Shown here: piece by piece, positions 17,191 to 62,117 of the stretch
Layout: each line of letters starts with the position of its first letter
How positions within the stretch are numbered: position 1 is the stretch's first letter
Origin: Candidatus Iainarchaeum sp.
Lineage (GTDB): Archaea > Iainarchaeota > Iainarchaeia > Iainarchaeales > Iainarchaeaceae
Length of the DNA stretch: 64,000 nucleotides
Direction: 5' to 3'
Assembly (NCBI GenBank): GCA_043812975.1
Contig: JBDRLP010000027.1
Span: forward strand, 1 to 64,000
Notes under the pieces: model-generated
Seen by the model: the letters and a program-made list of their open reading frames with translations, nothing else
What the model was told of the DNA's origin: nothing
Database searches by the model: none
Made by a program: the position numbers and the translations under genes

Positions 17191-18033
17191 ATGGAAGCTA
17201 ATGAGCCTAAAAATGAGTATTTAGAAAAATTCAAACAAGAGCTCATTATTTCGGGTTACAGCCAACGAACTATCAGTATGTACCTGCTTTACACTAAAAA
17301 TTTACTTAATTCAACCAAAAAACGCCCAAAAGACCTGGACAGGCAGGACATAGTTAGTTTTCTGGCTAAAGAAAAAGAAAAAGGATCCTCAAACTCAACT
17401 CTTGCATTAATCCACGCGGCATTGAAATTCTTCTTTCACAAATACTTAAAAAGCAATATTTTAGATGATATTCCTACTCCTAAGAAAAATAAGTATCTGC
17501 CAACAACCCTTACTAAGGACGAAACAAAAAAACTGATTAAAGCAACAAAAAAAGGCAGAAACCGGTTGCTGTTACAATTTATTTACTCCTCCGGAGTTCG
17601 TGTTAGTGAATCAGTCAATATGAAAACTGAAAATATTAACTTCAAAGAAAGAATTGGCAAAGTAAAATCTGGAAAAGGCGCCAAGGACCGAATTATTATC
17701 CTTTCAAAAAACTGGTGTAAATTAGCAAAAAAATACGTAGAAAAAAAGAAAATTAAAAGTGAATGGTTATTTTCAAAAAAGAACGGTAAAAAACTCTCAT
17801 CAGATACTGTTCAACGTATTGTAAAAGAAGCGGCTGAGAAAGCAGAAATTGAAAAACCCGTGACTCCGCACGTACTACGCCACAGCTTCGCCACCCATTT
17901 ACTGGAAGCTGGAGAAAACATCAGAAAAATCCAAGAACTTTTAGGCCACTCAAACCTAAATACCACCCAAATTTACACACACGTTTCCACAGAGCAACTC
18001 AAGAAAGTGAGCAGCCCCCTGGACAACCTGTAG
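17191..18033 (+). CDS. xerA: Tyrosine recombinase XerA/XerD-like
   Basis: SGVRVSE, GKGAKDR, HVLRHSFATHLL and LLGHSNLNTTQIY catalytic R-K-HxxR-H-Y set; no integron-integrase insertion visible. Confidence 0.9.
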   Translation: MEANEPKNEYLEKFKQELIISGYSQRTISMYLLYTKNLLNSTKKRPKDLDRQDIVSFLAKEKEKGSSNSTLALIHAALKFFFHKYLKSNILDDIPTPKKNKYLPTTLTKDETKKLIKATKKGRNRLLLQFIYSSGVRVSESVNMKTENINFKERIGKVKSGKGAKDRIIILSKNWCKLAKKYVEKKKIKSEWLFSKKNGKKLSSDTVQRIVKEAAEKAEIEKPVTPHVLRHSFATHLLEAGENIRKIQELLGHSNLNTTQIYTHVSTEQLKKVSSPLDNL

Positions 18034-22783: not shown

Positions 22784-22839
22784 CTTTTCTCGCTGAAGAA
22801 ACCTTAAAAAACCTCTTCTTAGGCAATATTTAGTCAAAT

Positions 22840-22913
22840 GGGCCCATAGCTCAGTCTGGTAGAGCAGCGGACTTTTAATCCGCGTGTCGAGGGTTCAAAT
22901 CCCTCTGGGCTCG
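22840..22913 (+). tRNA. tRNA-Lys (TTT)
   Basis: Full cloverleaf, anticodon loop CTTTTAA, G2.U71 pair, discriminator G73. Confidence 0.96.
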
Positions 22914-22988
22914 TTCAGTACTTTTTTCTTTCTCTTTGAAAGAGAAAGAAAAACCTACACTAAAAAGAAAGAGAAAAAGGCGTGTATT

Positions 22989-25331
22989 TTGTCTGAAGAA
23001 AAAGAAGTTTCAGTATGGTCAGAAAAGGTAGCTGATGATGTTATTGTTAGACATAAAGAACCTTATGTTGTTGAGGGCATGTGGACGCCAAGCGGGTTCT
23101 TTCACATCGGAAACGCGAGGCCGGAAGTGTTTACTCCGTATGCTGTAAAAAGAGCTATTCAGGATAAAGGAAAAAAAGTCACACAGAATTTTATTTTAGA
23201 TGATTTTGATGCAGTGAGGAAAATTCCTGGAGGATTAGGAATCAAAAAAGAAGACGAAGATAAATATCTTGGTTTTCCAATTGCCACTGCTCCGTCTCCT
23301 TTGCCTGGTTTCAAAACATGGGCGGATGCATTTGTTTCTCAGTTGAAAAAGTATGCTCCTGAATTCGGTCTTGACTTGAATTTTATTTCTGCTTTCCAAA
23401 CTTACAAAGAAGGAAAATTTAATGAGTTGATAAAATTCAGTATTGAAAATTCTAAGGAAATTGTGAAGGTTTGGACAAAAGTTGCAGGTTCTGAAAAAGA
23501 AGAAGATTTTGTCCCTTTGCAAGTCCTTTGTGAAAAGTGTAAAAAAATTTATTATACAAAAGTTCTTGGTTTTGAAAACGATTTAGTTGAATATGAATGC
23601 GAATGTGGTCAGAAAGGAAAAGTTTCCCCGTATGATGGTAATGCAAAATTACATTGGAGAGTACATTGGGTTTGCCACTGGATTCTCCACAAAGTGGATT
23701 TTGAATCAGGGGGAAAGGATCACTTTTCTAAAGGCGGTTCTGTTGATGTCGGGCAGGCATTGATTAAGGAAGTTTTCAAAAAAGAACCCCCTGTGCAGGT
23801 GCCAACTGAGTTTGTTCAGTTAGCTGGAGCAAAAATGGCAGGTTCCATTGGAAATGTTATTGATCTTGAATCTTGGTTAAAAGTAGCGCCGCCAGAACTT
23901 TTCAGGTTCATGAATTTTTCTTATAAACCTTACACTGTAATTGAGTTCTCATTCAAAAATAACAGTTTTGTTCTTTTGAACGATCGATTTGAAAGAGCCG
24001 AAAGAATTTATTTTGGTTTCGAAAAAGCAGAAAACGAAAAAATGACTCAGAAATTAAAGAAGATTTATGAATTTTCAGTAATAGGCACTCCGTCAAAAAG
24101 ATTAGTGCAGCTTCCGTTCTCAACAAGTATTTTACTTTCACAGATTCTGGATTTTGAAAATAATTTTGATGAAAGTTTAGATAAAATAAAAGAAGTATCA
24201 AAAATTCCTGAAGATTTGACTAACGAAGAAAAGGAAAAAATAAAAGAAAAACTAAAAAGAACTAAACACTGGGTCGAGAATTACGCTGAGGAATCATTCA
24301 GATTGAGTTTTGTTGAAGAATACGATTCTGGATTATTAGGCAGATTAGATGAAAAAATTGTTTCTGTGCTTACTCAGATAAACAAAAATCTTCTAAGTGC
24401 AAAAACCCAGGAGGAGATTCAGCAATTAATTTTTGATTCTTCAAAGGAAAACAACATTTCTCCAAAAGATTCTTTTAGAGTTATTTATTTGGCTTTAATT
24501 GGCAAGGAAAAGGGGCCTAAAGTAGGTTCTCTTGTTCCAGTTTTCGGAAAAGAAAAAGTAATGAAAAGAATTGAAGAAGTAATTTCTCAGCCAAAACCAA
24601 AAACTGCGGTTAGAGAAAAAAAGGACTCTAGTTTGCCAGGGGCTGAAGAACTTTCTAAAGTTTTCAATTTTGAGGTTTCAGAAAAAGTAAAAGAAAATTT
24701 TCCAAACCTCCGACTAGGAATTTTAGTTCTGAAGAATATTGCTAATGCAAAGCAAAGTCCTGAAATTTCTAAGTTGCTCAGAAAAAAAGAATCCGAATTA
24801 AGAAAAGACATTGAAGGAAAAGAACTTTCTTCAGTTGAAAATCTGAAACTCTGGAGAGAAGCTTACTCAAGTTTTGGCGGAAAACCAAAAAAATACAAGC
24901 CTTCAGTTGAGGCACTTGTAAAAAGAGTAGTTAAAGGAGAAGAACTTCCAAGCATCAATCTTTTAGTTGACATTTACAATTACATTTCTATAAAATATTT
25001 ACTTCCTGCCGGAGGGGACGATTTGGATAAAATTGAGGGCAAAGTTTCTCTTGATTATGCAACCGGAAAAGAGAACTTTTTGATGATTGGGTCTAATGAA
25101 AACGATGCCCCGAAAGAAGGGGAGATTGTTTACAAAGATTCCAAAGAAGTTTTGTGCAGACGTTGGAATTGGAGAGAATGTGACAAAACCAAGTTAACTG
25201 AAGAAACCAAAAATGCAGTAATTTATATTGAAAGTCTCAGTTCAGCAGATGATTTGGATAAAGCACTTGCTGAACTTGCGGAACTTGTTGAAAAGTACTG
25301 TAATGCCAAAACAAGCAAGTTTGTGGTTTAA
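22989..25331 (+). CDS. lysS: Class I lysine--tRNA ligase fused to a C-terminal B3/4 (PheRS-beta editing-like) domain
   Basis: TPSGFFHIGN (HIGH-like), CxxC...CxC zinc knuckle, KLHWRVHW, GKDH, KMAGS (KMSSS-like) and GPK motifs. After ~24660 there is a B3/4 domain (WREAYSSFG..P..YKPSVEAL.KR, INLLVDIYN.IS, D.DKIEG, EIVYKD, CRRWNWRE). Likely TTG start at 22989. Confidence 0.93.
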   Translation: MSEEKEVSVWSEKVADDVIVRHKEPYVVEGMWTPSGFFHIGNARPEVFTPYAVKRAIQDKGKKVTQNFILDDFDAVRKIPGGLGIKKEDEDKYLGFPIATAPSPLPGFKTWADAFVSQLKKYAPEFGLDLNFISAFQTYKEGKFNELIKFSIENSKEIVKVWTKVAGSEKEEDFVPLQVLCEKCKKIYYTKVLGFENDLVEYECECGQKGKVSPYDGNAKLHWRVHWVCHWILHKVDFESGGKDHFSKGGSVDVGQALIKEVFKKEPPVQVPTEFVQLAGAKMAGSIGNVIDLESWLKVAPPELFRFMNFSYKPYTVIEFSFKNNSFVLLNDRFERAERIYFGFEKAENEKMTQKLKKIYEFSVIGTPSKRLVQLPFSTSILLSQILDFENNFDESLDKIKEVSKIPEDLTNEEKEKIKEKLKRTKHWVENYAEESFRLSFVEEYDSGLLGRLDEKIVSVLTQINKNLLSAKTQEEIQQLIFDSSKENNISPKDSFRVIYLALIGKEKGPKVGSLVPVFGKEKVMKRIEEVISQPKPKTAVREKKDSSLPGAEELSKVFNFEVSEKVKENFPNLRLGILVLKNIANAKQSPEISKLLRKKESELRKDIEGKELSSVENLKLWREAYSSFGGKPKKYKPSVEALVKRVVKGEELPSINLLVDIYNYISIKYLLPAGGDDLDKIEGKVSLDYATGKENFLMIGSNENDAPKEGEIVYKDSKEVLCRRWNWRECDKTKLTEETKNAVIYIESLSSADDLDKALAELAELVEKYCNAKTSKFVV

Positions 25332-25376
25332 TGGAAGTTTAATAATGGTTATTTAAGCGAAGTATTTGGTGTTTGT

Positions 25377-25450
25377 GGGCCCATAGCTCAGTCTGGTAGA
25401 GCAGCGGACTCTTAATCCGCGTGTCGAGGGTTCAAATCCCTCTGGGCTCG
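25377..25450 (+). tRNA. tRNA-Lys (CTT)
   Basis: Identical to the upstream tRNA-Lys except at the first anticodon base (loop CTCTTAA). Confidence 0.96.
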
Positions 25451-25452
25451 CA

Positions 25453-27432: not shown

Positions 27433-28341
27433 ATGAAAAAATCAATCAAGACATCTTTTGGTTCTATCTTGTTGAAAGAACTTGAAACTGTCACGATTCC
27501 AGATTTACCTAGTCAATCTATTAATTTAAGTTTAAAATCTTTTTTAGCAGATGAACATTTACAATTTAATGTGATTAGCCAAACTAAAGATTACTATTTG
27601 TTAAGCTTGGCAAACAGAATCACAACTCTTCCAAAATATCTGACTCCTAAATTAGCTTATTTTATAGGTTATTTCTATGGAGACGGAGGGTTAAAAAATA
27701 TTGAAAAATCTTTCAAAATCACAGGGCGATTTGATCATAAATTCAAAATTGCAGATGAATTTTTGGTTCAAATTAAACAAATTAAATTTCTTTTTGAACA
27801 TTTGTTTGGTCTTGAAATCCCAGTTAGATTTGAACGAATTCATAAAGGAGAAAGAACTCATTATATAGAAATGACAAATAAAATAATTTACTTGTTTTTA
27901 ACAAAAGTTTTTGGTTTGCCTTGTGGGAAAAAAGATAATAAATTAAACACCCCCCAAATTATTACAAATTCTTCAACTGAACTTCAACAATGGTTTCTGA
28001 GAGGTTTATTTGATGCTGATGGGGATACCAGAGCAGTAGAAGCAGGATTCAAATCTCAATCGAGGGTTAAAATTAGGATGAAACAATTGCATTTTATTTC
28101 TGAGTTAAAACCTTTTATTGAATCTGTCTTTAAAGTTTCAGTTAACGGCCCGTATTTCGATTCTGAGGGGGATTCTGCTTATATTCAGGTTGAAAGACAA
28201 GCTGACATAATTAAACTTTCTGGATTGAATTTGTTTATTCACCCGATAAAAAAGTGGCGATTAAAGAAAACTAGAGAATTTTTGTTGAAAAGGAAGAATT
28301 TAAAAGTAATTGCCGCCGAAACTATTACAATGGGAACGTAG
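27433..28341 (+). CDS. Free-standing two-motif LAGLIDADG homing endonuclease
   Basis: LAYFIGYFYGDGG and FLRGLFDADGD motifs; no intein splicing motifs; stop codon lies inside tRNA-Phe. Confidence 0.88.
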   Translation: MKKSIKTSFGSILLKELETVTIPDLPSQSINLSLKSFLADEHLQFNVISQTKDYYLLSLANRITTLPKYLTPKLAYFIGYFYGDGGLKNIEKSFKITGRFDHKFKIADEFLVQIKQIKFLFEHLFGLEIPVRFERIHKGERTHYIEMTNKIIYLFLTKVFGLPCGKKDNKLNTPQIITNSSTELQQWFLRGLFDADGDTRAVEAGFKSQSRVKIRMKQLHFISELKPFIESVFKVSVNGPYFDSEGDSAYIQVERQADIIKLSGLNLFIHPIKKWRLKKTREFLLKRKNLKVIAAETITMGT

Positions 28342-28444
28342 CTCAGCCTGATGCGATTAAGGGTTGAAAAGCTACTTGTTGCAGGCTTAGGAGAGCAATA
28401 CGCTGAAGACGTATGTGTCGCGGGTTCAAATCCCGCCGTTCCCA
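28332..28444 (+). tRNA. tRNA-Phe (GAA) with a 39-nt D-loop intron (28351-28389)
   Basis: GGGAACG/CGTTCCC acceptor; ATACG-CTGAAGA-CGTAT anticodon arm. A perfect BHB motif restores the GCTC-AGCCTGGGA-GAGC D arm after splicing. Confidence 0.9.
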
Positions 28445-28494
28445 TCTCGACAAGTTCTTCGAGGTCTAGTTTATAGTTTTAAATTAAGGCATTA

Positions 28495-28518
28495 CGGGTT
28501 CAAATCCCGCCGACCCCA
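28495..28518 (+). repeat. Partial copy of a tRNA 3' end (T arm plus acceptor strand)
   Basis: CGGGTTCAAATCCCGCCGACCCCA matches 28421-28444 at 22/24 positions. Confidence 0.8.
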
Positions 28519-28530
28519 TTTATTCTCTTT

Positions 28531-38574: not shown

Positions 38575-40425
38575 TTATTCTCTATAAACATTGGTAACTC
38601 CTTCTACTTTTGAAATTTTTTTAAACAATTCTTCTAATTGAGAAACATTTTTGATTTTCAAACCAAATTTACATTCCACTGCATTGTTTGTAATAATTTT
38701 AGCATTTGCAGAACTGACGCGGATGTCGATTTTTGAAATTACCTCAAGCAGGTCTTTTAACAACCCAATCCTGTCAGAAGCATTGACTATAAGCTCTGTT
38801 TCATATGCGCTTTCAGAACCATGCCACGAAACTCCGATAAGAGTTCCTTTGTATTTACTAACTTCATTGCAGTCAATTCTATGAACTGATATTTTTCTTT
38901 TAGTTGTTTTTAAACCTACTATGTCATCTCCTGGAAGAGGAGAACAGCATTTAGCAAGTCTAATTTTTTTATCGCTGATTTTTATTTTTTGTGTACCCGT
39001 CTTGTTTGTTAAAGGCATTTTTTTAGATGTTTGAATTTGTAGCTTAGCTTTTATTTTCTGTTTGGCTTTTGAGGTTTTTACAAAACCAAGCCAGCTCATT
39101 TTAGGACTCTGTTTTTGAGAAGTAACTATCTCAATAATATCACTATTTTTTATAATTGCATGTAAAGGAGCAATACTCCCATTTATTTTTGCATTTTGAC
39201 AATGATCTCCAATATCAGAATGAACTGCGTATGCAAAATCAATTACTGTTGATCCTTCTGGTAATTCAATCACTTGGCCCTTTGGGGTTAATGCAAAAAT
39301 TTCTTTTTTGAATATGTTGGTTTCAGTTTGATCAGTAGATGTTTTTTGCCAGTCTAAAATCTGTTTTACCCATTCAATTTTTTTGTCAAATTTGGAATCC
39401 GTTTTTCCTCCTTTGTATAGCCAGTGAGAAGCTAGGCCGTATTCTGCAGCATCGTGCATTTCTTTTGTTTTGATTTGAATTTCAATAGGGTTTCCCATGT
39501 GGCTTTGAATTGCAGCGTGCAATGCTTTGTAACCATTTCTTTTTGGCTTTACAATATAGTCATCAAATTCCCCAGGTATTGGTTTCCAGACACTATGGAT
39601 AATTCCAAGAACTTCATAACAATCTTTTACTGAATCAGTTATAACTCTTAATGCAATCAGATCATAGATTTTGTTTAACCCTGTTTTTTTTAGCTCCATT
39701 TTTTTGTAGGTGCTGTAAATTGTTTTTACTCTGCCTGAAATCTTGGCATTTATTTTTTCTTTTTTTAGTTCTTTTTCTAATATTTCTTTTGTTTTTTTAA
39801 TATCTTGGGTAACGCCTTTAGCTGTTTTATTTATTGCACTGCTAATTAAAGAATAATTTTTAGGATCTTTATACTTGAATGCGAGTTCATTTAGTTCAGA
39901 ACTAATTTGGTATATTCCTATTTTATGTGCTAATGGGGCAAACAGTTCCTGTACATCAGAAACAAATTCTTCTTTATTTTCTATTGACGTTTCAGGAAGA
40001 TTTCTAAGAATAGTAAGAATATCTGCAAGATGCAGTATTATTACCTCAGGATTTGCTGATACTACTACTAAAAGTTTTTTTCTGAAATCTTCTTTATTCT
40101 CTGATTTTACTTGCAATGCTTTTCCAAATCGGATTTCAGAATCCAGTAAACTTGCAATATTTTTCCCAAATTCGTTTTCTACTTGTTTCAGGTATTTTTC
40201 AATGTTTTTTGGTGAGTGGATTAGGCCAGTAATTACAATGTCTTTTCTTTGCTTAAGGCTTAGTAAGAGATTTGCTAATTCTAGCCCGCGGGCTAAACAA
40301 CTGCTCTTTTTTGGACTTTCACTACACGCATTCGAAATAAATTCTATTCCTTTTTCTGCCTCTTTAATAGAGCCATATGCGGATTCAAATTTTTTAAGGA
40401 AGTCTTTCTGCAGGTTAGATTCCAT
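38575..40425 (-). CDS. Long RelA/SpoT homologue: degenerate HD domain, (p)ppGpp synthetase, TGS, ZFD and ACT domains
   Basis: GRVK.IYS.YKKM, DLIALRVI, EFDDY..KPK.NGY.ALH, EIQI.T..MH..AEYG.ASHW.YK; TGS DFAYAVHS; AKCC.P.PGD; ACT DR.GLL.D. Confidence 0.92.
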   Translation of the reverse strand: MESNLQKDFLKKFESAYGSIKEAEKGIEFISNACSESPKKSSCLARGLELANLLLSLKQRKDIVITGLIHSPKNIEKYLKQVENEFGKNIASLLDSEIRFGKALQVKSENKEDFRKKLLVVVSANPEVIILHLADILTILRNLPETSIENKEEFVSDVQELFAPLAHKIGIYQISSELNELAFKYKDPKNYSLISSAINKTAKGVTQDIKKTKEILEKELKKEKINAKISGRVKTIYSTYKKMELKKTGLNKIYDLIALRVITDSVKDCYEVLGIIHSVWKPIPGEFDDYIVKPKRNGYKALHAAIQSHMGNPIEIQIKTKEMHDAAEYGLASHWLYKGGKTDSKFDKKIEWVKQILDWQKTSTDQTETNIFKKEIFALTPKGQVIELPEGSTVIDFAYAVHSDIGDHCQNAKINGSIAPLHAIIKNSDIIEIVTSQKQSPKMSWLGFVKTSKAKQKIKAKLQIQTSKKMPLTNKTGTQKIKISDKKIRLAKCCSPLPGDDIVGLKTTKRKISVHRIDCNEVSKYKGTLIGVSWHGSESAYETELIVNASDRIGLLKDLLEVISKIDIRVSSANAKIITNNAVECKFGLKIKNVSQLEELFKKISKVEGVTNVYRE

Positions 40426-48365: not shown

Positions 48366-49355
48366 ATGGAAAAAATACCAATTAAAGGAGATTCAGAAAA
48401 TCAGGTTTTTGATGCCTTAAAAAAAGCCTGTTCAGGAGTAGAATTTAGTTCTTTTGAAGTAGGTGTTTCTAGTGATTCACTAGAAACTAAATATGAAATA
48501 AGAAAAAAATCAATCGATTTTATAAAATCCACGTTCAAAACAAAACACGACCCTGAAAATTTTGAAATCTATATTCTAATTCACTTTGATCGAGGATTTA
48601 TTGAAGCTACTCCTACAAATGTTCTTGTTGAAGGGGCTTATAATAAAGTTTCAAGAGAAATTGCTCAGACCTTTCATTATTGTTTTAAGTGCAGGGGCAG
48701 GGGTTGCAAAAAATGTAACAAAACAGGAAAACTTTCAGAGGAATCAGTTCAGGAACTAATAGAAAAAATAGTTCTGCCGGAGTTTAAATCATCTGAATCT
48801 AAATTTCATGGTTGTGGAAGAGAAGACAAAGATGTTTTGATGTTGGGTAAAGGAAGGCCTTTTGTAATAGAATTGGTCGAACCAAAAAAACGTTCAGTTA
48901 ATTTGAAGAAACTTGAAGATACAATTAATTCAAAAAATAAGAACAAGATTTCAGTTAATGGTGTAAAGTTTGTTGAAAAGCAAAGGATTGTAGAAATAAA
49001 AAATACGCCATTTGAAAAAATTTATCTTGCAAAATGTTCGTGTTCAGAAATTTCAAAAAAAGAAACTGAATCGCTAATTAATAAAGAAATAAAGATTATT
49101 CAGCGTACTCCTGTTCGAGTTGAAAAAAGACGGGTTGATAAGGAACGTGAAAAAACAGCAAAAATAATTAAAGCAGAAATTCTAAACAAAAAAGAATTTT
49201 TATTAGAAATACTTTCATCGCATGGTCTTTATATTAAAGAGTTTATTTCTGGAGATGAAAAAAGAACTGAACCGAGCATTTCTTCTATGCTCGGAAAAGA
49301 ATGTATTTGTAAAGAACTTGCTGTTTTAGAAATAGTGTTACCTAAAAAAAATTAG
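48366..49355 (+). CDS. pus10: tRNA pseudouridine(54/55) synthase Pus10
   Basis: FHGCGREDKDV.MLG.GRPFV, QRTP.RV..RR and GLYIKEFISGD..RT.PS motifs. Confidence 0.92.
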   Translation: MEKIPIKGDSENQVFDALKKACSGVEFSSFEVGVSSDSLETKYEIRKKSIDFIKSTFKTKHDPENFEIYILIHFDRGFIEATPTNVLVEGAYNKVSREIAQTFHYCFKCRGRGCKKCNKTGKLSEESVQELIEKIVLPEFKSSESKFHGCGREDKDVLMLGKGRPFVIELVEPKKRSVNLKKLEDTINSKNKNKISVNGVKFVEKQRIVEIKNTPFEKIYLAKCSCSEISKKETESLINKEIKIIQRTPVRVEKRRVDKEREKTAKIIKAEILNKKEFLLEILSSHGLYIKEFISGDEKRTEPSISSMLGKECICKELAVLEIVLPKKN

Positions 49356-49377
49356 ATATCCTCTATCCCCCGCTCCG

Positions 49378-49428
49378 CCACCGTTGCGTCGGTGGGGTAC
49401 GCGTCCACCTCACTTGTGTTCGGTAGGA
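49378..49428. repeat. GC-rich ~55-bp hairpin element, copy A, flanked by a duplicated radA 3' end
   Basis: CCACCG-TTGCGT-CGGTGG hairpin; homologous to 59978-60030; exact 22-bp flanking repeats at 49356-49377 and 49433-49454. Confidence 0.75.
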
Positions 49429-51912
49429 CTAAATATCCTCTATCCCCCGCTCCGTTACCCTGTAAATGGCTTCTCCGTCAGGTAATGAAGGGCTATCAAC
49501 TAATTTTGCAACTCTTTTATCTTCCTTGCTTTTCCTCAAATACAGTCTTGTTTTGGAAGCGTGTGCAACCACGTTTCCTCCAACAGGTGCTGTTGGGTCA
49601 CCAAACATTATGTCAGGTCTCTCCATAACCTGGTTTGTTACAAGCACTACAACATTTGACATTTCTGCAAGCTTTTGCAGAGTGCGCATATGTGTGTTAA
49701 GTTTCTGTTGTCTTTCTGCAAGAGTTCCTCTTCCAACGAACTCAGATCTGAATTGTGCCATGAGAGAATCCACTATAACGAGTTTAATATTTTTCTCTTT
49801 CACGAGTTCTGATGCTTTTTCAGCCAATAACATTTGGTGGTCACTATTGTATGCTCTTGCCACATAAATGTTTTTCAAAACTTCTTCAGAGTCAAGTCCC
49901 TGGGCTTCTGCAATTGCAACAATTCTTTCAGGCCTGAAACTGTTTTCGGAATCAATGTAAAGACATGATCCGTCTAAACCTCCTTTTTCTTTTGGTAATT
50001 GTACTGTTACTGCTGTTTGAAAACACCATTGGGTGTTATGCAAGTACACTGGTTTGTTTCCGCCTATGAAACTGTGCACTCCCGGAACCACTAAATCATA
50101 CACCCAGTCATTATATTTTGTGTTGCTAATTTTTGTTATTTTTTCCCATTTTACCTTGCTTTTATGGATTAGTTCAAGCATTCCAAGGTCTTTTTTGAGT
50201 TCTTTGTTTTCAATTAATGTATTTGTCATTTTTGCGAGTGTTTCTGTAATTTCACCTGCTTTTTGCGAACTCATTTTTCTGCTAATGTAGTTTTGGAATG
50301 TGCTTTTGTTCAGATTCATTTCATTTCTTATTTCTTCTGTACTAAAAGGGAGCAGTTCCAATGCTTTGAATACGTGTTTTTTTGAGGGGGTTTCCAGAAA
50401 TTCTTTTGCTTCCCTTATTTCCCACAGCCTTGTTTTGAAAAAATCCTGCATGTCCTCAAGAGTTTTGTGCGTTATTCTTTCCATTGCAGGTTTTTTTGCA
50501 AAAAAACTCACAAACAGTGTTTTGTATCCCTTGTTAAACATTGTTTTTTTGTTCCACTTATTGAATCTTCTTCTTGAACCGCTTAGTTTTGAATAGATTC
50601 TTTTGTAAACAGGTTCAATTGCTTTTAAGGGCAAGCAATATTTTGTCGAAATATTTTTTCCACCGGTAAGCAAATCCTCTTTTTTTATTAAACTATACTC
50701 TTTCATTAGTTTGCCAATAATCATTTTTGCTTTTGGTTCTGTTATAAAGTTTTTGTAAAACTCTTTTTCTTTAATAATGCTTGTTTTTGCCGTAACACTA
50801 ACTCCTGTTCTTGAGAACAAGTAAGCAAGTCCTGTGCTTAATTTTTTCGATCTTGTCCCTGTAATAATACTATTGCTAATTTCCCCGTCACCATCAAGGT
50901 AACCTGCCAAAAATGATTTTATTGTTTCTTCTTTTGCAGTTAAAATTTCTTCTGGGACAAATTTTGTGTAGGAATTGGTTTTGCCAAGTTCTTTCAGGAA
51001 TTCTTTTGTTGGTTTTTGGAAAATAATTAATTGTTTTTTTTCATTAAAAGATGGGGTGTAACCGAATCTTTTTTCAATGTAATTAAGTATCCACTTTTGT
51101 GCTTTTTTGTTAAAAATTGTTATACTGCAAGGATTAGCACAGCCTTCTGCTGAAAACAACCCTAAAAAGTAAGCGTCATCTATTGAAAGTTCTTTTCCTT
51201 CAAAATCAATTTTTTCAGGCACTCCAATAAAATCCCCTTCTTTCAGAAGGCCACTCGATTTCCATCGAATTCCTTCTTCATCGATAGTAAGGAGAGGGTG
51301 ATTTTCTGTTAATTTTATTTCTGCTCCTCTTTCGGTTTCAATTGCCCTGAGTGTTTCACAATACTCTTTGAACAACTTTGAAGCAGACGCTTTTTTCGGG
51401 TTTCCTTGTTTGTCTATTCCAATTACTTGAACAGGTTTTTTTAATTCCGCTAAATAACCTCCATCAAATTTCTTTTCATTAACCGCATAATTTTCGTACA
51501 CTTCCTCAATTGACCTCAAATGTGCCCTATCAGGATTAAAATAAAGAATGTTAGTGTCCTTTGAAACACATTTTCCTGAAGCAAACTTTCCATAAATTTC
51601 TGTAATGCTTTGGGTTTCTATTCCACCGCCTATGAGATTATCTACTTCTTTACTTCCCATAGTTAGTTTTCCTACGAGTTTTCTTTTTTCAGCTAAAACA
51701 GATGCGGATTCATAACCCATTTCTAAAGCATCCCTTGCTGCTTTGATTGCTTTATCAGCTGTGCCATCCCCCAATCCAGCTATTTCCTTTAATTCCTTTG
51801 GAGATGCAACTGCAATATTTTCCAGGGTTTTGTAGCCTGCATTAATTAGTTTTTCACTTGCCAGTGGTCCTACACCAGGCAAATCTTCGATTTTTTTAAT
51901 TTCTTTAGTCAT
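49429..51912 (-). CDS. radA: DNA repair and recombination protein RadA with an intein
   Basis: N-terminal HhH (DLPGVG); GGGIETQSITE.YG...SGK|TQ Walker A split by the intein; YIDSENSFRPER and GRGTLAERQQKL motifs. Confidence 0.96.
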   Translation of the reverse strand: MTKEIKKIEDLPGVGPLASEKLINAGYKTLENIAVASPKELKEIAGLGDGTADKAIKAARDALEMGYESASVLAEKRKLVGKLTMGSKEVDNLIGGGIETQSITEIYGKFASGKCVSKDTNILYFNPDRAHLRSIEEVYENYAVNEKKFDGGYLAELKKPVQVIGIDKQGNPKKASASKLFKEYCETLRAIETERGAEIKLTENHPLLTIDEEGIRWKSSGLLKEGDFIGVPEKIDFEGKELSIDDAYFLGLFSAEGCANPCSITIFNKKAQKWILNYIEKRFGYTPSFNEKKQLIIFQKPTKEFLKELGKTNSYTKFVPEEILTAKEETIKSFLAGYLDGDGEISNSIITGTRSKKLSTGLAYLFSRTGVSVTAKTSIIKEKEFYKNFITEPKAKMIIGKLMKEYSLIKKEDLLTGGKNISTKYCLPLKAIEPVYKRIYSKLSGSRRRFNKWNKKTMFNKGYKTLFVSFFAKKPAMERITHKTLEDMQDFFKTRLWEIREAKEFLETPSKKHVFKALELLPFSTEEIRNEMNLNKSTFQNYISRKMSSQKAGEITETLAKMTNTLIENKELKKDLGMLELIHKSKVKWEKITKISNTKYNDWVYDLVVPGVHSFIGGNKPVYLHNTQWCFQTAVTVQLPKEKGGLDGSCLYIDSENSFRPERIVAIAEAQGLDSEEVLKNIYVARAYNSDHQMLLAEKASELVKEKNIKLVIVDSLMAQFRSEFVGRGTLAERQQKLNTHMRTLQKLAEMSNVVVLVTNQVMERPDIMFGDPTAPVGGNVVAHASKTRLYLRKSKEDKRVAKLVDSPSLPDGEAIYRVTERGIEDI
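50035..51570 (-). mobile_element. RadA intein (512 aa) with LAGLIDADG endonuclease
   Basis: Starts at Cys (CVSKDT), block B TENHPL, LGLFSAEG and FLAGYLDGDG motifs, VYDLVVPG.HSF, ends LHN followed by Thr+1. Confidence 0.95.
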
Positions 51913-58777: not shown

Positions 58778-58825
58778 AGTTATCACTAAAATATAGTAGA
58801 TTGTATAATAAAAAAAGAATTAAAT

Positions 58826-58848
58826 AGAGGGGAAAAACCCTCTTTTTG
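58826..58848. terminator. Hairpin with T-tract between the small ORF and srp54
   Basis: AGAGGG...CCCTCT stem followed by TTTT on the plus strand. Confidence 0.35.
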
Positions 58849-58851
58849 TTA

Positions 58852-59070
58852 TTAAGCCTTTGCTACTTCTTGGATTACTTTCTTTGCTTCAGTTCCTTCT
58901 TGTACTTCTTTCTTTTTGGTTCTGAAATTAGCATATGGCCTGTATTTTGTTTTAGTCCATGCTTCAGGCTGTTTTTTTCTCATTTTGAATTCTTGTGCTA
59001 AAAGTTCCATTCTGAACTCTTCGTTAGACTCCATTCCTAATAGGTCGTTTAAAGATGTCATGTGAATCAT
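58852..59070 (-). CDS. Small hypothetical protein
   Basis: 72-aa ORF overlapping the TRAM gene stop; GGAGG RBS. Confidence 0.55.
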   Translation of the reverse strand: MIHMTSLNDLLGMESNEEFRMELLAQEFKMRKKQPEAWTKTKYRPYANFRTKKKEVQEGTEAKKVIQEVAKA

Positions 59071-59474
59071 TCCTCCTTTTTTTCTTCGTTTTCATCAGAA
59101 TCTTCTTCAGAATCATCCTCAGTCTCTTCCTCGGTTTCCTCTTCAGTTTCTTCTGCTTCTTTATCTGCTGTGTCTTCGGTCTCTGTTGCTTCTTCATCTG
59201 TGCTTGGGTCTTCGTCTGAATCTTCCTGAGTTTCTGCCTCACCATCAGCAGCTTCCTCAGAATCTCCAATAACTTCCCCAAAGCTTACTTTGCCTCTTAC
59301 AGCATTAATCTTTACTTTTACTTTATCTCCTTTCTGCACGTTAGGCACTATAATCACATAGTTGTTAACTCTAGCGATTCCGTCGCCTTTTTCTCCAATT
59401 CCTTCAATTTCGACATCATAAATGTCTCCTTCTTTTACCGGAATTGCACCAAATCTTCCTCTTTTTCCGTCCAT
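59067..59474 (-). CDS. TRAM-domain RNA chaperone with long acidic tail
   Basis: PVKEG..Y.V.IE.IG.KGDGIARV..Y.I.VP...GD.VKVKI motif plus an Asp/Glu-rich C-terminus. Confidence 0.92.
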   Translation of the reverse strand: MDGKRGRFGAIPVKEGDIYDVEIEGIGEKGDGIARVNNYVIIVPNVQKGDKVKVKINAVRGKVSFGEVIGDSEEAADGEAETQEDSDEDPSTDEEATETEDTADKEAEETEEETEEETEDDSEEDSDENEEKKEE

Positions 59475-59646
59475 TTAATTTCCCCCTTTACTTATTTTTC
59501 AAACAACGTGCGGATGCCAATCAAAACCTGTCTAATGAATTATTACTCATAGAATAAGGTTATTTGTTGAAATCCAATCCTATATTAATAGGTGCTTTTA
59601 AACTATTTAAATGAATCCCTTTTTGCCAGAATCAGCTTATATTGAT

Positions 59647-59934
59647 TTATTTTAGCACTTCTAGGGTTCCTTGTCTGCCTGTACCTAACTGCACTTGGCC
59701 TCGGAATTCAGAGCAGTAACCATTAGAAATCTTGATTTTATCGCCCTCTTCGACCTGATCTGTCTGTTCATTCCATAGGCTAAGGCTTACTTCTCCGGTT
59801 TCATCCTTTCCTGCACAGTTACATACTGTTCCGGATCCTTTTTCATTAGCCCATTTCCTGATTTCGCCTTTTGAGGTTATTTCAAGTTCGATTTCATCAA
59901 CTGGCGCTCTTGCTTTTAGTTCTGAAACTTTCAT
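59647..59934 (-). CDS. Single OB-fold ssDNA-binding protein (SSB)
   Basis: MKVSELK...DETGEV.L.LWN...EGD.I.I.NGY..EF.G..QL..GR.G pattern. Confidence 0.88.
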   Translation of the reverse strand: MKVSELKARAPVDEIELEITSKGEIRKWANEKGSGTVCNCAGKDETGEVSLSLWNEQTDQVEEGDKIKISNGYCSEFRGQVQLGTGRQGTLEVLK

Positions 59935-59977
59935 AGTAAACTCACTTAGAATATGAAAACTATAAATGCTTTTAAAA

Positions 59978-60030
59978 CAACCGTTGCGTCGGTTGGGTGC
60001 GCGGATGTCCAACCCATCTGCGATGGGTTA
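59978..60030. repeat. GC-rich ~55-bp hairpin element, copy B
   Basis: CAACCG-TTGCGT-CGGTTG hairpin plus AACCCATC-TGC-GATGGGTT; homologous to 49378-49428. Confidence 0.75.
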
Positions 60031-60037
60031 TAATGCC

Positions 60038-60086
60038 AAATTAGAAATCAAATAATTCTATCAATAATAAATTCAGGTTTGAATTC
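60038..60086. repeat. Exact 49-bp duplicate of the ftsY 3' end (other copy at 60815-60863)
   Basis: AAATTAGAAATCAAATAATTCTATCAATAATAAATTCAGGTTTGAATTC is present twice. Confidence 0.92.
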
Positions 60087-60777
60087 AAGCCCTTCTGCGG
60101 ATTCTTGAAAGTCTTTTTCGAGAAATTTCAAACCCCCACGAGTTTTTTGCTAGTGTTCTGAGAATATTTGGGGGCCTGCCTAAAAGCGAGTTATGGGTTT
60201 TAGCGGGGAGGTATCTTGCGGCAATTCTGTTTCGGGTTCCATGAGGCAGTAATCTTAAAGCACCCCTACTGATGTGTATTTTTGGCGGGTCTAATCTCCG
60301 TGCTGAATAATGTTCTCCTGAAAAGTGTATGAATGCATCTATTAGTGCAGCATCAAAGTTTTTTCCTGTTGCTTTTAGAAAATCTCTTGGACCTTTCCCT
60401 TTTACCCCGTGCATTTCTGATATAATAAATGGCAGGCCAATCCTGATTTCAATCGAGCCAACAATATTGTTGGCCTTGTCTACTATTTGCAGTGTTGGTA
60501 CATTGAAGTGTTCTTTGTCATTCACTATCATAAAATTACTGTATTGGATTCTGTATCCGTTTCCAAGGTCTTTCTTGAATCTTGTCATTGCACTGCAAAA
60601 CGAAAATAAGTCAGCTCTGTCTTTTTCGCTTAAAGATTTCAAATCATGAGATATACTAGATATCGATATATGCGGTTCTATTTTTGTTGAAAGAATTTTT
60701 TCAGTAGTAAGAACCCCAAGTAATTCTCTTAATTGGTCGTCTAATTCTCTTTCAAGATTTTTTTGGTTCTGTCCCAT
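60085..60777 (-). CDS. Orphan protein enclosed by the ftsY 3' duplication
   Basis: 230-aa ORF with an Arg-rich C-terminus, its own TTTAAATT box and a stop codon straddling the repeat junction. Confidence 0.7.
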   Translation of the reverse strand: MGQNQKNLERELDDQLRELLGVLTTEKILSTKIEPHISISSISHDLKSLSEKDRADLFSFCSAMTRFKKDLGNGYRIQYSNFMIVNDKEHFNVPTLQIVDKANNIVGSIEIRIGLPFIISEMHGVKGKGPRDFLKATGKNFDAALIDAFIHFSGEHYSARRLDPPKIHISRGALRLLPHGTRNRIAARYLPAKTHNSLLGRPPNILRTLAKNSWGFEISRKRLSRIRRRA

Positions 60778-60824
60778 AATTTTATAATGTTCCTTGAGAA
60801 TTTAAATTTTGTTAAAATTAGAAA

Positions 60825-62117
60825 TCAAATAATTCTATCAATAATAAATTCAGGTTTGAATTCTAATAAATCCTCATACCTTTGCCCTGTTCCCACAAAC
60901 ACAATTGGCTTTTTCAATTTGTATAAAAGCGAAATAGCGGTTCCACCTTTTGTATCAGTATCTATTTTGCTTAGTATAAATCCGTCGATTCCAATTGCAT
61001 TATCAAATTCAGTTGCCTGTTGCAGAAGAGCCTGTCCGGTGTAAGCTTCTCCCACATATAATTTCACATCTGGTTTAATCACGCGTTCAATTTTTTTAAG
61101 TTCTTCAATCAGATTTTTGTTGGTGTCCTGTCTTCCTGCAGAATCGATTAAAACAACATCAATATTTTTTGCTTCTGCTGCTTTCACTGCATCAAATGCA
61201 ACAGCTGCAGGATCGCTTCCGTAATTATGCTTTACAACTTTAACTCCGAGTTTTTTCCCGTGTTCTTCTAACTGATCAATTGCTGCTGCTCTGAAAGTAT
61301 CTCCTGCTGCCAGAATAACGCTTTTCCCATGCTCCATAAAGTACTTAGAAATTTTTGCTATTGAGGTTGTTTTACCTGCTCCGTTTGGACCCAAAAATAA
61401 AATTTTTAATGGTTTTTCTGTTCTTGTAAGCAAATCTATTTTTTCTGTTTGCATTATTTTTTCAAGAGAACTTTTAACTTCTGCTTTAAGAAATTCTCCA
61501 ATATCTTCTTTTGCAGAAATATCTTTTCCAATCAGCCGTTCTTTTAATTCATTTACAATTGCTTCTGCAGTATCCTGTTCAACATCAGATTCCAATAAGC
61601 TTAATTCAAATTCATCAAAAAATTCTCCTGCTTCTTTTTCGGTTATTTTTATTTTCCCGCCTACAAAACCGAATAGTTTTTTCCCTAAACCAACTTTTGC
61701 CTTTAATTCTCTTTTCTCATCTTCACGAATTTCTTTTACTTTTTCTTCAGGGGTCTTCTCTTCACCGCCGATAGAAAATTCTCCTTCTTTTATTTCAGGT
61801 TCTTCAATTTCTTCAGTTTGTGGTTCAGTTTCAAGTTCAATTGGTTCCTCAGTTTCCTGTTCCGGTTTTTCAATTATTTCTTCTTTAGAAACAGTTTCCT
61901 CAACAACAGGAGTTTCTTCAATTTCTTTAGTTTCAATAACTTTTTCCTTAACTTCCTGTTTTATTTTAGGTTCTTTTTTTTGTTCCAGAATTGGTTCTTT
62001 TTTCTCCTGAACTTCAGTAATTTGTTCAGGTTCTGGTTTTTTCGGTTCCTGTTTTTGTAGTTTTTCCATTAATTTATCTGTAAAATTAGAGACCTTTTTC
62101 TTTAGGAAATCAAACAT
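60825..62117 (-). CDS. ftsY: SRP receptor FtsY
   Basis: Acidic N-domain; GPNGAGKTT, DTFRAAA, DSAGR, SKID...KGG and GTGQ.Y.DL motifs. Confidence 0.96.
   Translation of the reverse strand: MFDFLKKKVSNFTDKLMEKLQKQEPKKPEPEQITEVQEKKEPILEQKKEPKIKQEVKEKVIETKEIEETPVVEETVSKEEIIEKPEQETEEPIELETEPQTEEIEEPEIKEGEFSIGGEEKTPEEKVKEIREDEKRELKAKVGLGKKLFGFVGGKIKITEKEAGEFFDEFELSLLESDVEQDTAEAIVNELKERLIGKDISAKEDIGEFLKAEVKSSLEKIMQTEKIDLLTRTEKPLKILFLGPNGAGKTTSIAKISKYFMEHGKSVILAAGDTFRAAAIDQLEEHGKKLGVKVVKHNYGSDPAAVAFDAVKAAEAKNIDVVLIDSAGRQDTNKNLIEELKKIERVIKPDVKLYVGEAYTGQALLQQATEFDNAIGIDGFILSKIDTDTKGGTAISLLYKLKKPIVFVGTGQRYEDLLEFKPEFIIDRII

Follow-up and report, generated by a model that had tools for sequence, protein, structure and literature searches.

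We describe a single-gene cassette inserted at the 3′ end of ftsY, the gene for the SRP receptor GTPase, in a 64,000-nucleotide (nt) stretch of DNA from Candidatus Iainarchaeum sp., an archaeon of the DPANN group. This whole stretch, contig C27:1-64000 of the genome bin G000, is referred to below as the window. The cassette is 728 nt long (60087..60814, minus strand), consists of a promoter region and one gene, and is enclosed by two perfect copies of a 49-nt sequence that contains the end of ftsY itself. It is a recent insertion with target duplication, acquired after G000 split from its sister species, since the site is empty in the two closest relatives, the inserted gene was not found in five other genomes of the genus and the two copies still agree at 49 of 49 positions. 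For the origin of the duplication we favor, with slightly less than even confidence, that it was made during insertion (by a staggered break or a template switch) and did not involve a pre-existing attachment (att) site. G000 is a metagenome-derived bin of 1.24 Mb in 68 contigs, with 35% G+C and a completeness of 94%.

The two copies of the repeat are found at 60815..60863 and 60038..60086, with a spacing of 777 nt and 728 nt between them, and the 49-mer occurs at just these two places in the 1.24-Mb assembly. The native copy (60815..60863, minus strand) is joined to ftsY and comprises its last 12 codons, the TGA stop codon and 10 nt of downstream sequence. The gene ftsY itself (60825..62117, minus strand) is full length and encodes an SRP54-type GTPase domain (Pfam, E = 1e-71). 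The second copy (60038..60086, minus strand) is collinear with the ancestral sequence downstream of ftsY. The only open reading frame (ORF) of at least 50 amino acids (aa) on the ftsY strand between the copies is ORF230 (230 aa; 60085..60777, minus strand), while an antisense frame of 106 aa is also present. The stop codon of ORF230 is composed of a T at 60087 and the bases GA at 60086-60085, two of its three bases thus being supplied by the second copy of the repeat.

The 37 nt upstream of ORF230 (60778..60814, minus strand) contain a TATA-like motif (TTTAAAT at 60800-60806) at position -29 from the ATG. This is the position of a genome-wide TATA-like peak: of the 568 upstream regions, 36 have TTTAWAW starting at -30/-29, against a background of about 0-8 per position (these counts, like all gene calls beyond the window, are based on simple longest-ORF calls and are crude). 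A TATA-like peak at -30/-29 corresponds to the geometry of leaderless archaeal transcripts. The inserted DNA starts 8 nt upstream of the TATA box and stops in the last codons of ORF230, and with 37% G+C it is not foreign-looking. The cassette is a compact, self-promoted transcription unit carrying one gene. No recombinase or transposase domain was found within it (ORF230 matches no Pfam family), nor were inverted repeats found at its ends, and the duplications in the other cases described below range from 18 to more than 100 nt. A scan of positions 58800-61000 against Rfam gave no credible match. An earlier interpretation of this DNA, made from its letters alone (the sequence-only reading), had proposed that a promoter-plus-gene cassette without an integrase or transposase was inserted at the ftsY 3′ end, flanked by an exact 49-bp duplication and with a TGA formed across the repeat junction. 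All of this is borne out: the copies are identical in all comparisons, the stop codon combines one base of the insert with two of the repeat, no Pfam family is encoded inside, the TATA-like motif lies at -29 and empty sites exist in G003 and G001.

These two genomes are the closest relatives of G000 among five of the same genus (G001-G005, completeness 63-92%). Over the ftsY end, where they share 85-86% DNA identity with G000, both contain the ftsY end once and differ by one clean gap of 777 nt in the alignment, so that the cassette is absent from both. The C-terminal end of FtsY falls at the same residue position in all three genomes. None of the five genomes of the genus yielded ORF230.

The gene downstream of the cassette encodes a 95-aa OB-fold SSB-like protein (59647..59934, minus strand, with the start set at the ATG 59932-59934). 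We located this gene and ftsY in 22 other genomes of the same family, and in 15 of these both are found on one locus. The distance from the ftsY stop to the SSB start is 890 nt in G000, and 50, 50, 58, 68, 86, 131, 155, 243, 311, 583, 729, 792, 845, 867, and 1255 nt in the 15 relatives. In G008, which is not among the 15, the two genes are about 3.4 kb apart and the interval encodes a protein of the helix-turn-helix type, a SET-domain protein and an ABC ATPase. Different cargo is present in this spacer in six of the 15 relatives: a PemK/MazF-like toxin and its ribbon-helix-helix partner in G021, a protein with weak resemblance to methyltransferases in G012 (E = 0.0016, short of the Pfam cut-off) and proteins without any Pfam family in G004, G015, G002, and G019. 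No integrase was found among the 12 cargo proteins scanned, and no repeat of at least 11 nt involving the ftsY end was found in any of the 15 spacers. Both G000 and G001 carry GC-rich hairpin elements directly after the ftsY stop, although of different types, and G003 has none. Judging from these comparisons, the ftsY-SSB spacer is a family-wide insertion hot spot. The sequence-only reading had proposed looking for empty sites or different cargo in this interval in other strains, and both are seen, the former in two same-genus genomes and the latter in the six relatives just mentioned. Whatever the mechanism, the spacer could be used as a marker site for strain-level gene flux in the family.

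Duplication-flanked inserts recur throughout the genome. Exact direct repeats of at least 18 nt, spaced 40-8000 nt apart, gave 126 seeds in G000 but only 0-2 per Markov shuffle (n = 5, local), which excludes a chance origin of these repeats. After merging, we kept pairs in which the similarity stops abruptly on both sides, leaving 36 pairs. Gene-free inserts of 34-163 nt with 43-65% G+C are bracketed by 13 of them, 17 enclose at least one predicted gene, and the other six include tRNA ends, a pair of DsbA paralogues and short AT-rich inserts. Four of the 17 gene-enclosing pairs were discounted: the tRNA-Lys genes around lysS, a pair on the rRNA contig, a segmental duplication of 4 kb and a pair that itself belongs to two hairpin elements. 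Among the remaining gene-enclosing pairs, the ftsY repeat is the longest perfect one. The others include a 62-nt pair (61/62 identical) on contig C3 around an ATP-grasp gene and a FemAB/GNAT-like gene (named by Pfam), a 24-nt pair at C27:84136 around a gene for a 185-aa membrane protein, a 31-nt pair at C25:4268 around a gene for a 195-aa protein, three pairs on C57, one of which surrounds an antitoxin-like gene and a PIN gene, a 50-nt pair with 88% identity on C60 and a 36-nt pair with 89% identity at C42:26488-31953 around a cation-transport segment of 5.4 kb. The C42 segment encodes an ArsR-type regulator, a P-type cation ATPase, a Na+/H+ exchanger with a TrkA-N domain and a CBS protein, and may be an island.

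Besides ftsY, two gene-containing cases could be compared with relatives. On C3, the upstream copy is the native gene end (K-Y-stop, as in G010), and the copy of this 3′ end lies behind an insert of two genes. The insert is also found in G003 (86% identity), and its two genes are located elsewhere in G010 and G014, which belong to two other genera. The second case, on C29, lies outside the filter that gave the 36 pairs. Here, a glycosyltransferase gene and a methyltransferase gene (C29:12650-15100) lie between two copies of a stretch of about 125 nt that comprises the promoter and the first 18 codons of the L21e gene. The duplicated stretch is single-copy in G001, which lacks the cassette. The two repeat copies are near-identical close to the gene and loosely alike further out. 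The same two-gene cassette occupies the same site in G003, with an extra 195 nt at its junction. Since the cassette is 95% identical between G000 and G003 whereas the flank is 87% identical, the comparison suggests that it moved between the species recently or reached both from one source.

The same arrangement was found in G108, from a different family within the order, where a Hef-like gene is followed by an ORF230 homologue. The last five codons of the homologue, its stop codon and 6 nt reappear as an exact 24-nt copy 763 nt farther along (L045 2107-2893), behind a gene for a 213-aa protein without known family that has an AT-rich upstream region of its own. The G108 locus has the same architecture as ftsY, except that here the GNAT-like gene is the target. 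A further match of 21/24 in G108 was not counted, as it lies within the native end of the upstream Hef-like gene. In seven loci with ORF230 homologues outside G000, no repeats bracketing the homologues themselves were found. We also observed that the upstream region of the 213-aa gene has a 10-nt word (TTAAATTCTC) in common with the cassette promoter of G000.

Another class of inserts in G000 is formed by a dispersed GC-rich element with two hairpins. One subtype, defined by a 14-nt core with up to two mismatches, is present in 22 copies, and copies also occur in other genera of the family. Ten of the 22 copies are flanked by exact repeats of 11-22 nt, versus none of 22 in a shifted control (longest repeat 9 nt), and other GC-rich inserts in G000 are flanked by repeats of 35, 41, and 42 nt. 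The hairpin core is not present in the cassette (60087-60814). The nearest copy of the element (59976..60033) is a separate insertion outside the repeats, 4 nt from the second copy of the 49-mer, and is located between the relic of the ftsY end and the TATA box of the SSB gene. Its first hairpin is followed by a T-run, and from its sequence this copy may act as a terminator. At another site (C65:2725-2830), a hairpin element is located at an ATGA stop/start overlap with a duplication of 17 nt, and this insert reads as an open frame of 32 codons, from the duplicated start to a TGA that overlaps the real start.

The sequence-only reading had pointed to similar duplications at radA and tRNA-Phe as signs of a recurring gene-capture mechanism. 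The recurrence itself stands, as duplicated gene ends flanking inserts are found genome-wide in G000 and again in G108, but neither of the two examples encloses a gene. The radA gene (49429-51912) is interrupted by an intein with a LAGLIDADG domain, and its last codons are repeated (49353-49382 and 49430-49459, 27/30 identical with an exact core of 22 nt). The 47 nt between these copies (49383-49429) are a GC-rich hairpin element. Positions 28332-28444 look, by eye, like a tRNA-Phe(GAA) gene whose D-loop region contains about 39 additional bases; ARAGORN does not call it. Its T-arm and 3′ acceptor strand recur 49 nt downstream in a 25-nt copy (23/25 identical, the acceptor bases differing), the whole spanning 28332-28519. 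This second T-arm copy may represent an old att scar or half of a tRNA. Just upstream of the tRNA-Phe-like gene is a LAGLIDADG-like ORF (27433-28341).

ORF230 was described as an orphan in the sequence-only reading, a label that no longer holds. Although a word-index search retrieved only ORF230 itself, a HMMER search against 1.84 billion representatives yielded 27 proteins at E ≤ 0.001 including ORF230, and thus 26 distant relatives. Five reached E ≤ 1e-10, and the best relative (E = 9e-21) shares 34% identity. The family alignment contains 25 proteins, after two very long ones that match over about 50-70 residues were dropped. Family members are about 146-266 aa long and have a basic C-terminal tail, and ORF230 ends about five residues short of the tails of most relatives. 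The near-invariant positions are G74, Y75, P116, Q123, G124, P130, F133, F141, and L145, all of which are retained in ORF230 except Q123, where it has H. Of 215 genomes in the phylum, just eight match the family profile, each belonging to the same order, and none of 22 in the family of G000 does; ORF230 is thus a patchy accessory gene of an unnamed family. The neighbors of its homologues vary by genome and include, by eye, small PIN-like, AbrB-like, and HicA-like genes, and no conserved partner or antitoxin gene was found beside them. Scans of metagenome, genome and viral contigs (three collections, incomplete) retrieved no close relative or donor of ORF230; a viral match of 36 residues at 42% identity was treated as chance.

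An AlphaFold2 model of ORF230, built with the family alignment, has a predicted local distance difference test (pLDDT) score of 83.6 and a predicted template modeling (pTM) score of 0.80. Compared with the PDB by Foldseek, it gave no match at E ≤ 0.001; the best has E = 6.6e-3, and acetyl-CoA-binding and GNAT entries lead the weak matches. VIA-align, run against 48,161 chains, gave NatD with Z = 9.0 (root-mean-square deviation 4.0, 142 aligned residues), AtaT with 8.3 and Naa10 with 8.1. Judged by their titles, at least 45 of the best 50 entries are GNAT-type transferases, with Z from 7.0 to 9.0. We grade the GNAT-like fold of ORF230 as probable, because Z values of 7-8 are also reached by models without a true match, and Z below 8 can reflect a common arrangement. 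The Atlas model resembles a DUF535 cluster (TM 0.52) and GNAT clusters (0.38-0.44), and all Atlas feature matches scored below 0.9. No curated GNAT sequence model matches ORF230 (no Pfam family at E up to 1, no NCBIfam family), and names proposed by PHROGs (best E = 0.014) and PADLOC (best E = 0.009, AbiEii, 13 bits) are not credible.

In the predicted structure, residues from about 63 to 230 align with GNAT acyltransferases (including NatD and the tRNA-acetylating toxins AtaT and TacT) at Z = 7-9. Like these proteins, ORF230 is small and single-domain with a basic tail, and its relatives sit in variable regions rich in toxin-antitoxin genes. Unlike GNAT proteins, its family has a conserved stretch I-Q-G-x-x-G-x-x-P (with H for the family Q in ORF230) and no Pfam GNAT match; this stretch differs from the usual CoA-binding motif. 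ORF230 is most likely an acyl-CoA-dependent acyltransferase-like accessory protein.

A 728-nt piece of DNA with one transcription unit was inserted within the last 39 coding bases of ftsY, and according to the mechanism that we favor, 49 nt of the target around the insertion point were duplicated in the same event. The upstream copy keeps ftsY complete, whereas the downstream copy is a dead relic of 12 codons that, by luck, finishes the stop codon of the new gene. Either a linear fragment would have been captured in a long staggered break, with the overhangs being filled in, or replication would have switched template twice, with the strand returning 49 nt upstream of its departure point. The ftsY case would then exemplify something that this DPANN lineage does throughout its genome, with hairpin elements and gene segments (one to several genes) landing at gene ends with target duplications of about 11 to 60 nt and more. 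We favor this mechanism because each duplication-flanked case repeats its own local target, over lengths from 11 to more than 100 nt, because the ends of the gene segments are unrelated (by eye, no common terminal sequence is found among them), because the 3′ edge of the cassette cuts its own gene, and because the hairpin elements of G000 would need such a mechanism anyway. An arbitrary breakpoint fits the observation that ORF230 ends about five residues early with a stop borrowed from the target.

Several points weigh against this mechanism. No enzyme or break-making activity could be tied to the cassette, and its donor was not found in the three contig collections, which leaves any microhomology at the junctions unreadable. 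Neither was a physical link found between gene cassettes and hairpin elements. When such a link was sought, a GC-rich stretch was present within 150 nt at ftsY, C27:84136, and C60 but not at C3, C29, C25, and C42, an inconsistent adjacency no greater than expected from the density of the elements. The six cargo-bearing spacers of relatives are free of repeats, implying other entry routes or the decay of old repeats. Only the cases at ftsY, C29, and C3 were compared with relatives, the rest being repeat geometry and crude ORF calls. Furthermore, a single crossover with a small circle yields the same structure, and archaeal integrases also leave repeats at 3′ ends: one paper gives 29-69 bp for crenarchaeal att sites and places 14 of 68 thaumarchaeal elements in protein genes, in their 3′-distal parts (PMC6563490). 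We found no reverse transcriptase, Cas1 or Y1 transposase in the bin, which is 94% complete. G000 has one TnpB-like, two DDE, and one rve transposase gene, none of them linked to the cassettes. An origin as a restriction fragment was also considered, as the repeat starts with GAATTC, and rejected: the genome contains 714 of these sites against 757 expected, so they are not avoided, and an edge of this kind is missing from the other cases.

The crossover just mentioned would be a Campbell-type integration, in which a small circle made of the cassette and 49 nt of the ftsY end recombined once with the chromosome through host homologous recombination. We consider this route unlikely, though it accounts for much. 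RadA is present, the structure is exactly that expected from one crossover, and the repeat-free cargo in the spacers of six relatives is the donor arrangement that would be needed, the circle then being a circularized piece of DNA from a close strain that already had the cassette behind ftsY, or one excised from an earlier insertion. The C29 cassette, more similar between G000 and G003 than its flank and at the same site in both, shows that cassettes may pass between species of the genus, and the gradient of similarity between the C29 repeat copies could mark a crossover between diverged partners, but it could equally reflect age and constraint on the promoter part. Against this route, it needs several steps (a fragment, a circle, uptake, and a crossover on just 49 nt), leaves the origin of the first duplication unexplained and has no counterpart among the collections searched, none of which contained a second context of ORF230 or the 49-mer. 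It also does not explain the repeats of 11-22 nt around hairpin elements of 50-110 nt, so that a second mechanism would be needed anyway. The sequence-only reading had named attP/attB-like or homology-driven recombination as the means of integration; the homology-driven part would correspond to the unlikely route given here, while for the att-like part no recombinase could be linked to the 49-mer.

A site-specific origin, in which the two 49-mers are attL and attR of a decayed or non-autonomous element moved in trans by a tyrosine recombinase, seems to us quite improbable. The length of the repeat, the 3′-distal position and the rebuilt stop codon match archaeal integrated elements (PMC6563490), and elements that lack an integrase but retain att sites are known in bacteria (PMC5704250). 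Four tyrosine recombinases are encoded in G000, one XerA-like (17191-18033 in the window) and three of about 400-430 aa (on C26 and C20). The XerA-like protein had been put forward in the sequence-only reading as a candidate enzyme, a proposal that gains no support, as nothing ties the 49-mer to a recombinase. The nearest recombinase gene is 42 kb away. The cassette itself has no integrase, the 49-mer was not found elsewhere in the genome, and the repeats that bracket other recombinase genes are 14-19 nt long and unrelated to it. With copies that are still identical at 49/49, an element of several kilobases would need to have shrunk almost at once to one promoter-plus-gene unit. The position of the cassette 3′ edge within the last codons of its own gene also argues against this origin, and the other segments each repeat a different local target over 18 to more than 100 nt, unlike the product of one site-specific enzyme. 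The possibility that an assembler threaded a repeat-bounded path (a strain variant or a small circle sharing the 49-mer) into the contig is far more remote still. It draws on the fact that G000 is a metagenome bin of 68 contigs and that no other assembly shows the ftsY cassette. The public runs share little of the stretch (0.11, 0.06, and 0.00), as scattered short pieces that gave no sign of a junction, an empty site or a circle, and the cassette junctions are known from the assembly. On the other hand, the insert fits its surroundings, with ftsY whole, the ORF230 stop completed and the promoter at the spacing of the host, and analogous structures occur in independent assemblies (the C3 and C29 cassettes in G003 and the 24-nt case in G108). 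One public run (X1) contains a 216-nt contig with a depth of 3.4 that matches 60815-61030 without differences. It starts exactly where the repeat does, as if from a graph branch there, although it may derive from the source sample itself. The probability that is left belongs to something we have not considered.

The ftsY cassette is a variant of known integrated elements. Like archaeal elements integrated at the 3′ ends of protein genes (PMC6563490), it has flanking direct repeats, a rebuilt frame and stop codon, and an empty site in a close relative, and its 49 nt fall within their range of 29-69 bp. Those elements are multigene and carry an integrase or a casposase, whereas the cassette measures 728 nt and has one non-recombinase gene. 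Another difference is that neither a cognate integrase nor an att core used repeatedly was found, and the other cases in G000 duplicate unrelated targets over varied lengths. The cis-mobilizable elements (CIMEs) of Firmicutes, which have decayed but retain attL and attR, resemble the cassette in structure and have no integration genes of their own (PMC5704250). CIMEs neighbor or resemble integrase-bearing elements of the same att specificity, whereas no such partner was seen for the cassette, and a long decay is unlikely because the repeats of the cassette are perfectly identical.

Within the same genome, the hairpin elements are like the cassette in landing at gene ends, in their variable target duplication and in leaving stops and starts intact. 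They differ from it in being 50-110 nt long, non-coding, sequence-related and present in tens of copies, while the cassette is unique, protein-coding and without the hairpin core. Its 49-nt duplication is also longer than the longest measured around a hairpin element (42 nt exact, or 47 nt with one mismatch). With integron cassettes it shares the nature of a single-gene unit beside an existing gene, and such units can follow one another, as in G108. Unlike integron cassettes, it has its own promoter, no attC-like palindrome and no IntI or attI, and the flanking repeat is target sequence. It lacks the terminal inverted repeats and the short target duplication of fixed length that characterize insertion sequences and MITEs (miniature inverted-repeat transposable elements).

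DPANN genomes are very small and densely packed, and little is known on how they gain genes. The ftsY site captures a single-gene gain almost in the act, with perfect repeats, an empty site in a sister species and an essential gene saved. If one process served both genes and hairpin elements, this would be a capture route unlike integrases, transposases and integrons that could be searched for in other reduced genomes. In its most general form, an integrase-independent uptake of any type of DNA fragment with long target duplications of variable length (about 10 to more than 60 nt) in a DPANN lineage, we regard the idea as possible but doubtful. If true, the duplication would rebuild the stop, start or promoter hit by the insert, insertions at the ends of essential genes would be survivable in a genome that is 90% coding, this would be a main route of accessory-gene gain, and the ftsY cassette would be its freshest gene-sized example. 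If the cassette is instead a decayed or trans-mobilized integrase element, it is an unusually minimal one. We found no account of long, variable target duplications in DPANN archaea or archaeal MITEs in the full text of articles, main text only, and the listings on template-switch insertions contained only papers on eukaryotes.

Elsewhere in the window, archaeal-type genes encode L18Ae, L31e, eIF6, prefoldin, TFIIE-alpha, and aTrm56. Two further loci deserve mention. A RelA/SpoT-type protein of full length, with HD, synthetase, TGS, and ACT domains, is encoded at 38575-40425 in this DPANN archaeon. At 22839-25451, a class I lysyl-tRNA synthetase gene is fused to a B3/4 domain and is located between tRNA-Lys genes with the anticodons UUU and CUU, which are identical at 74 of 75 positions, the first of these overlapping the annotated start of the ORF.

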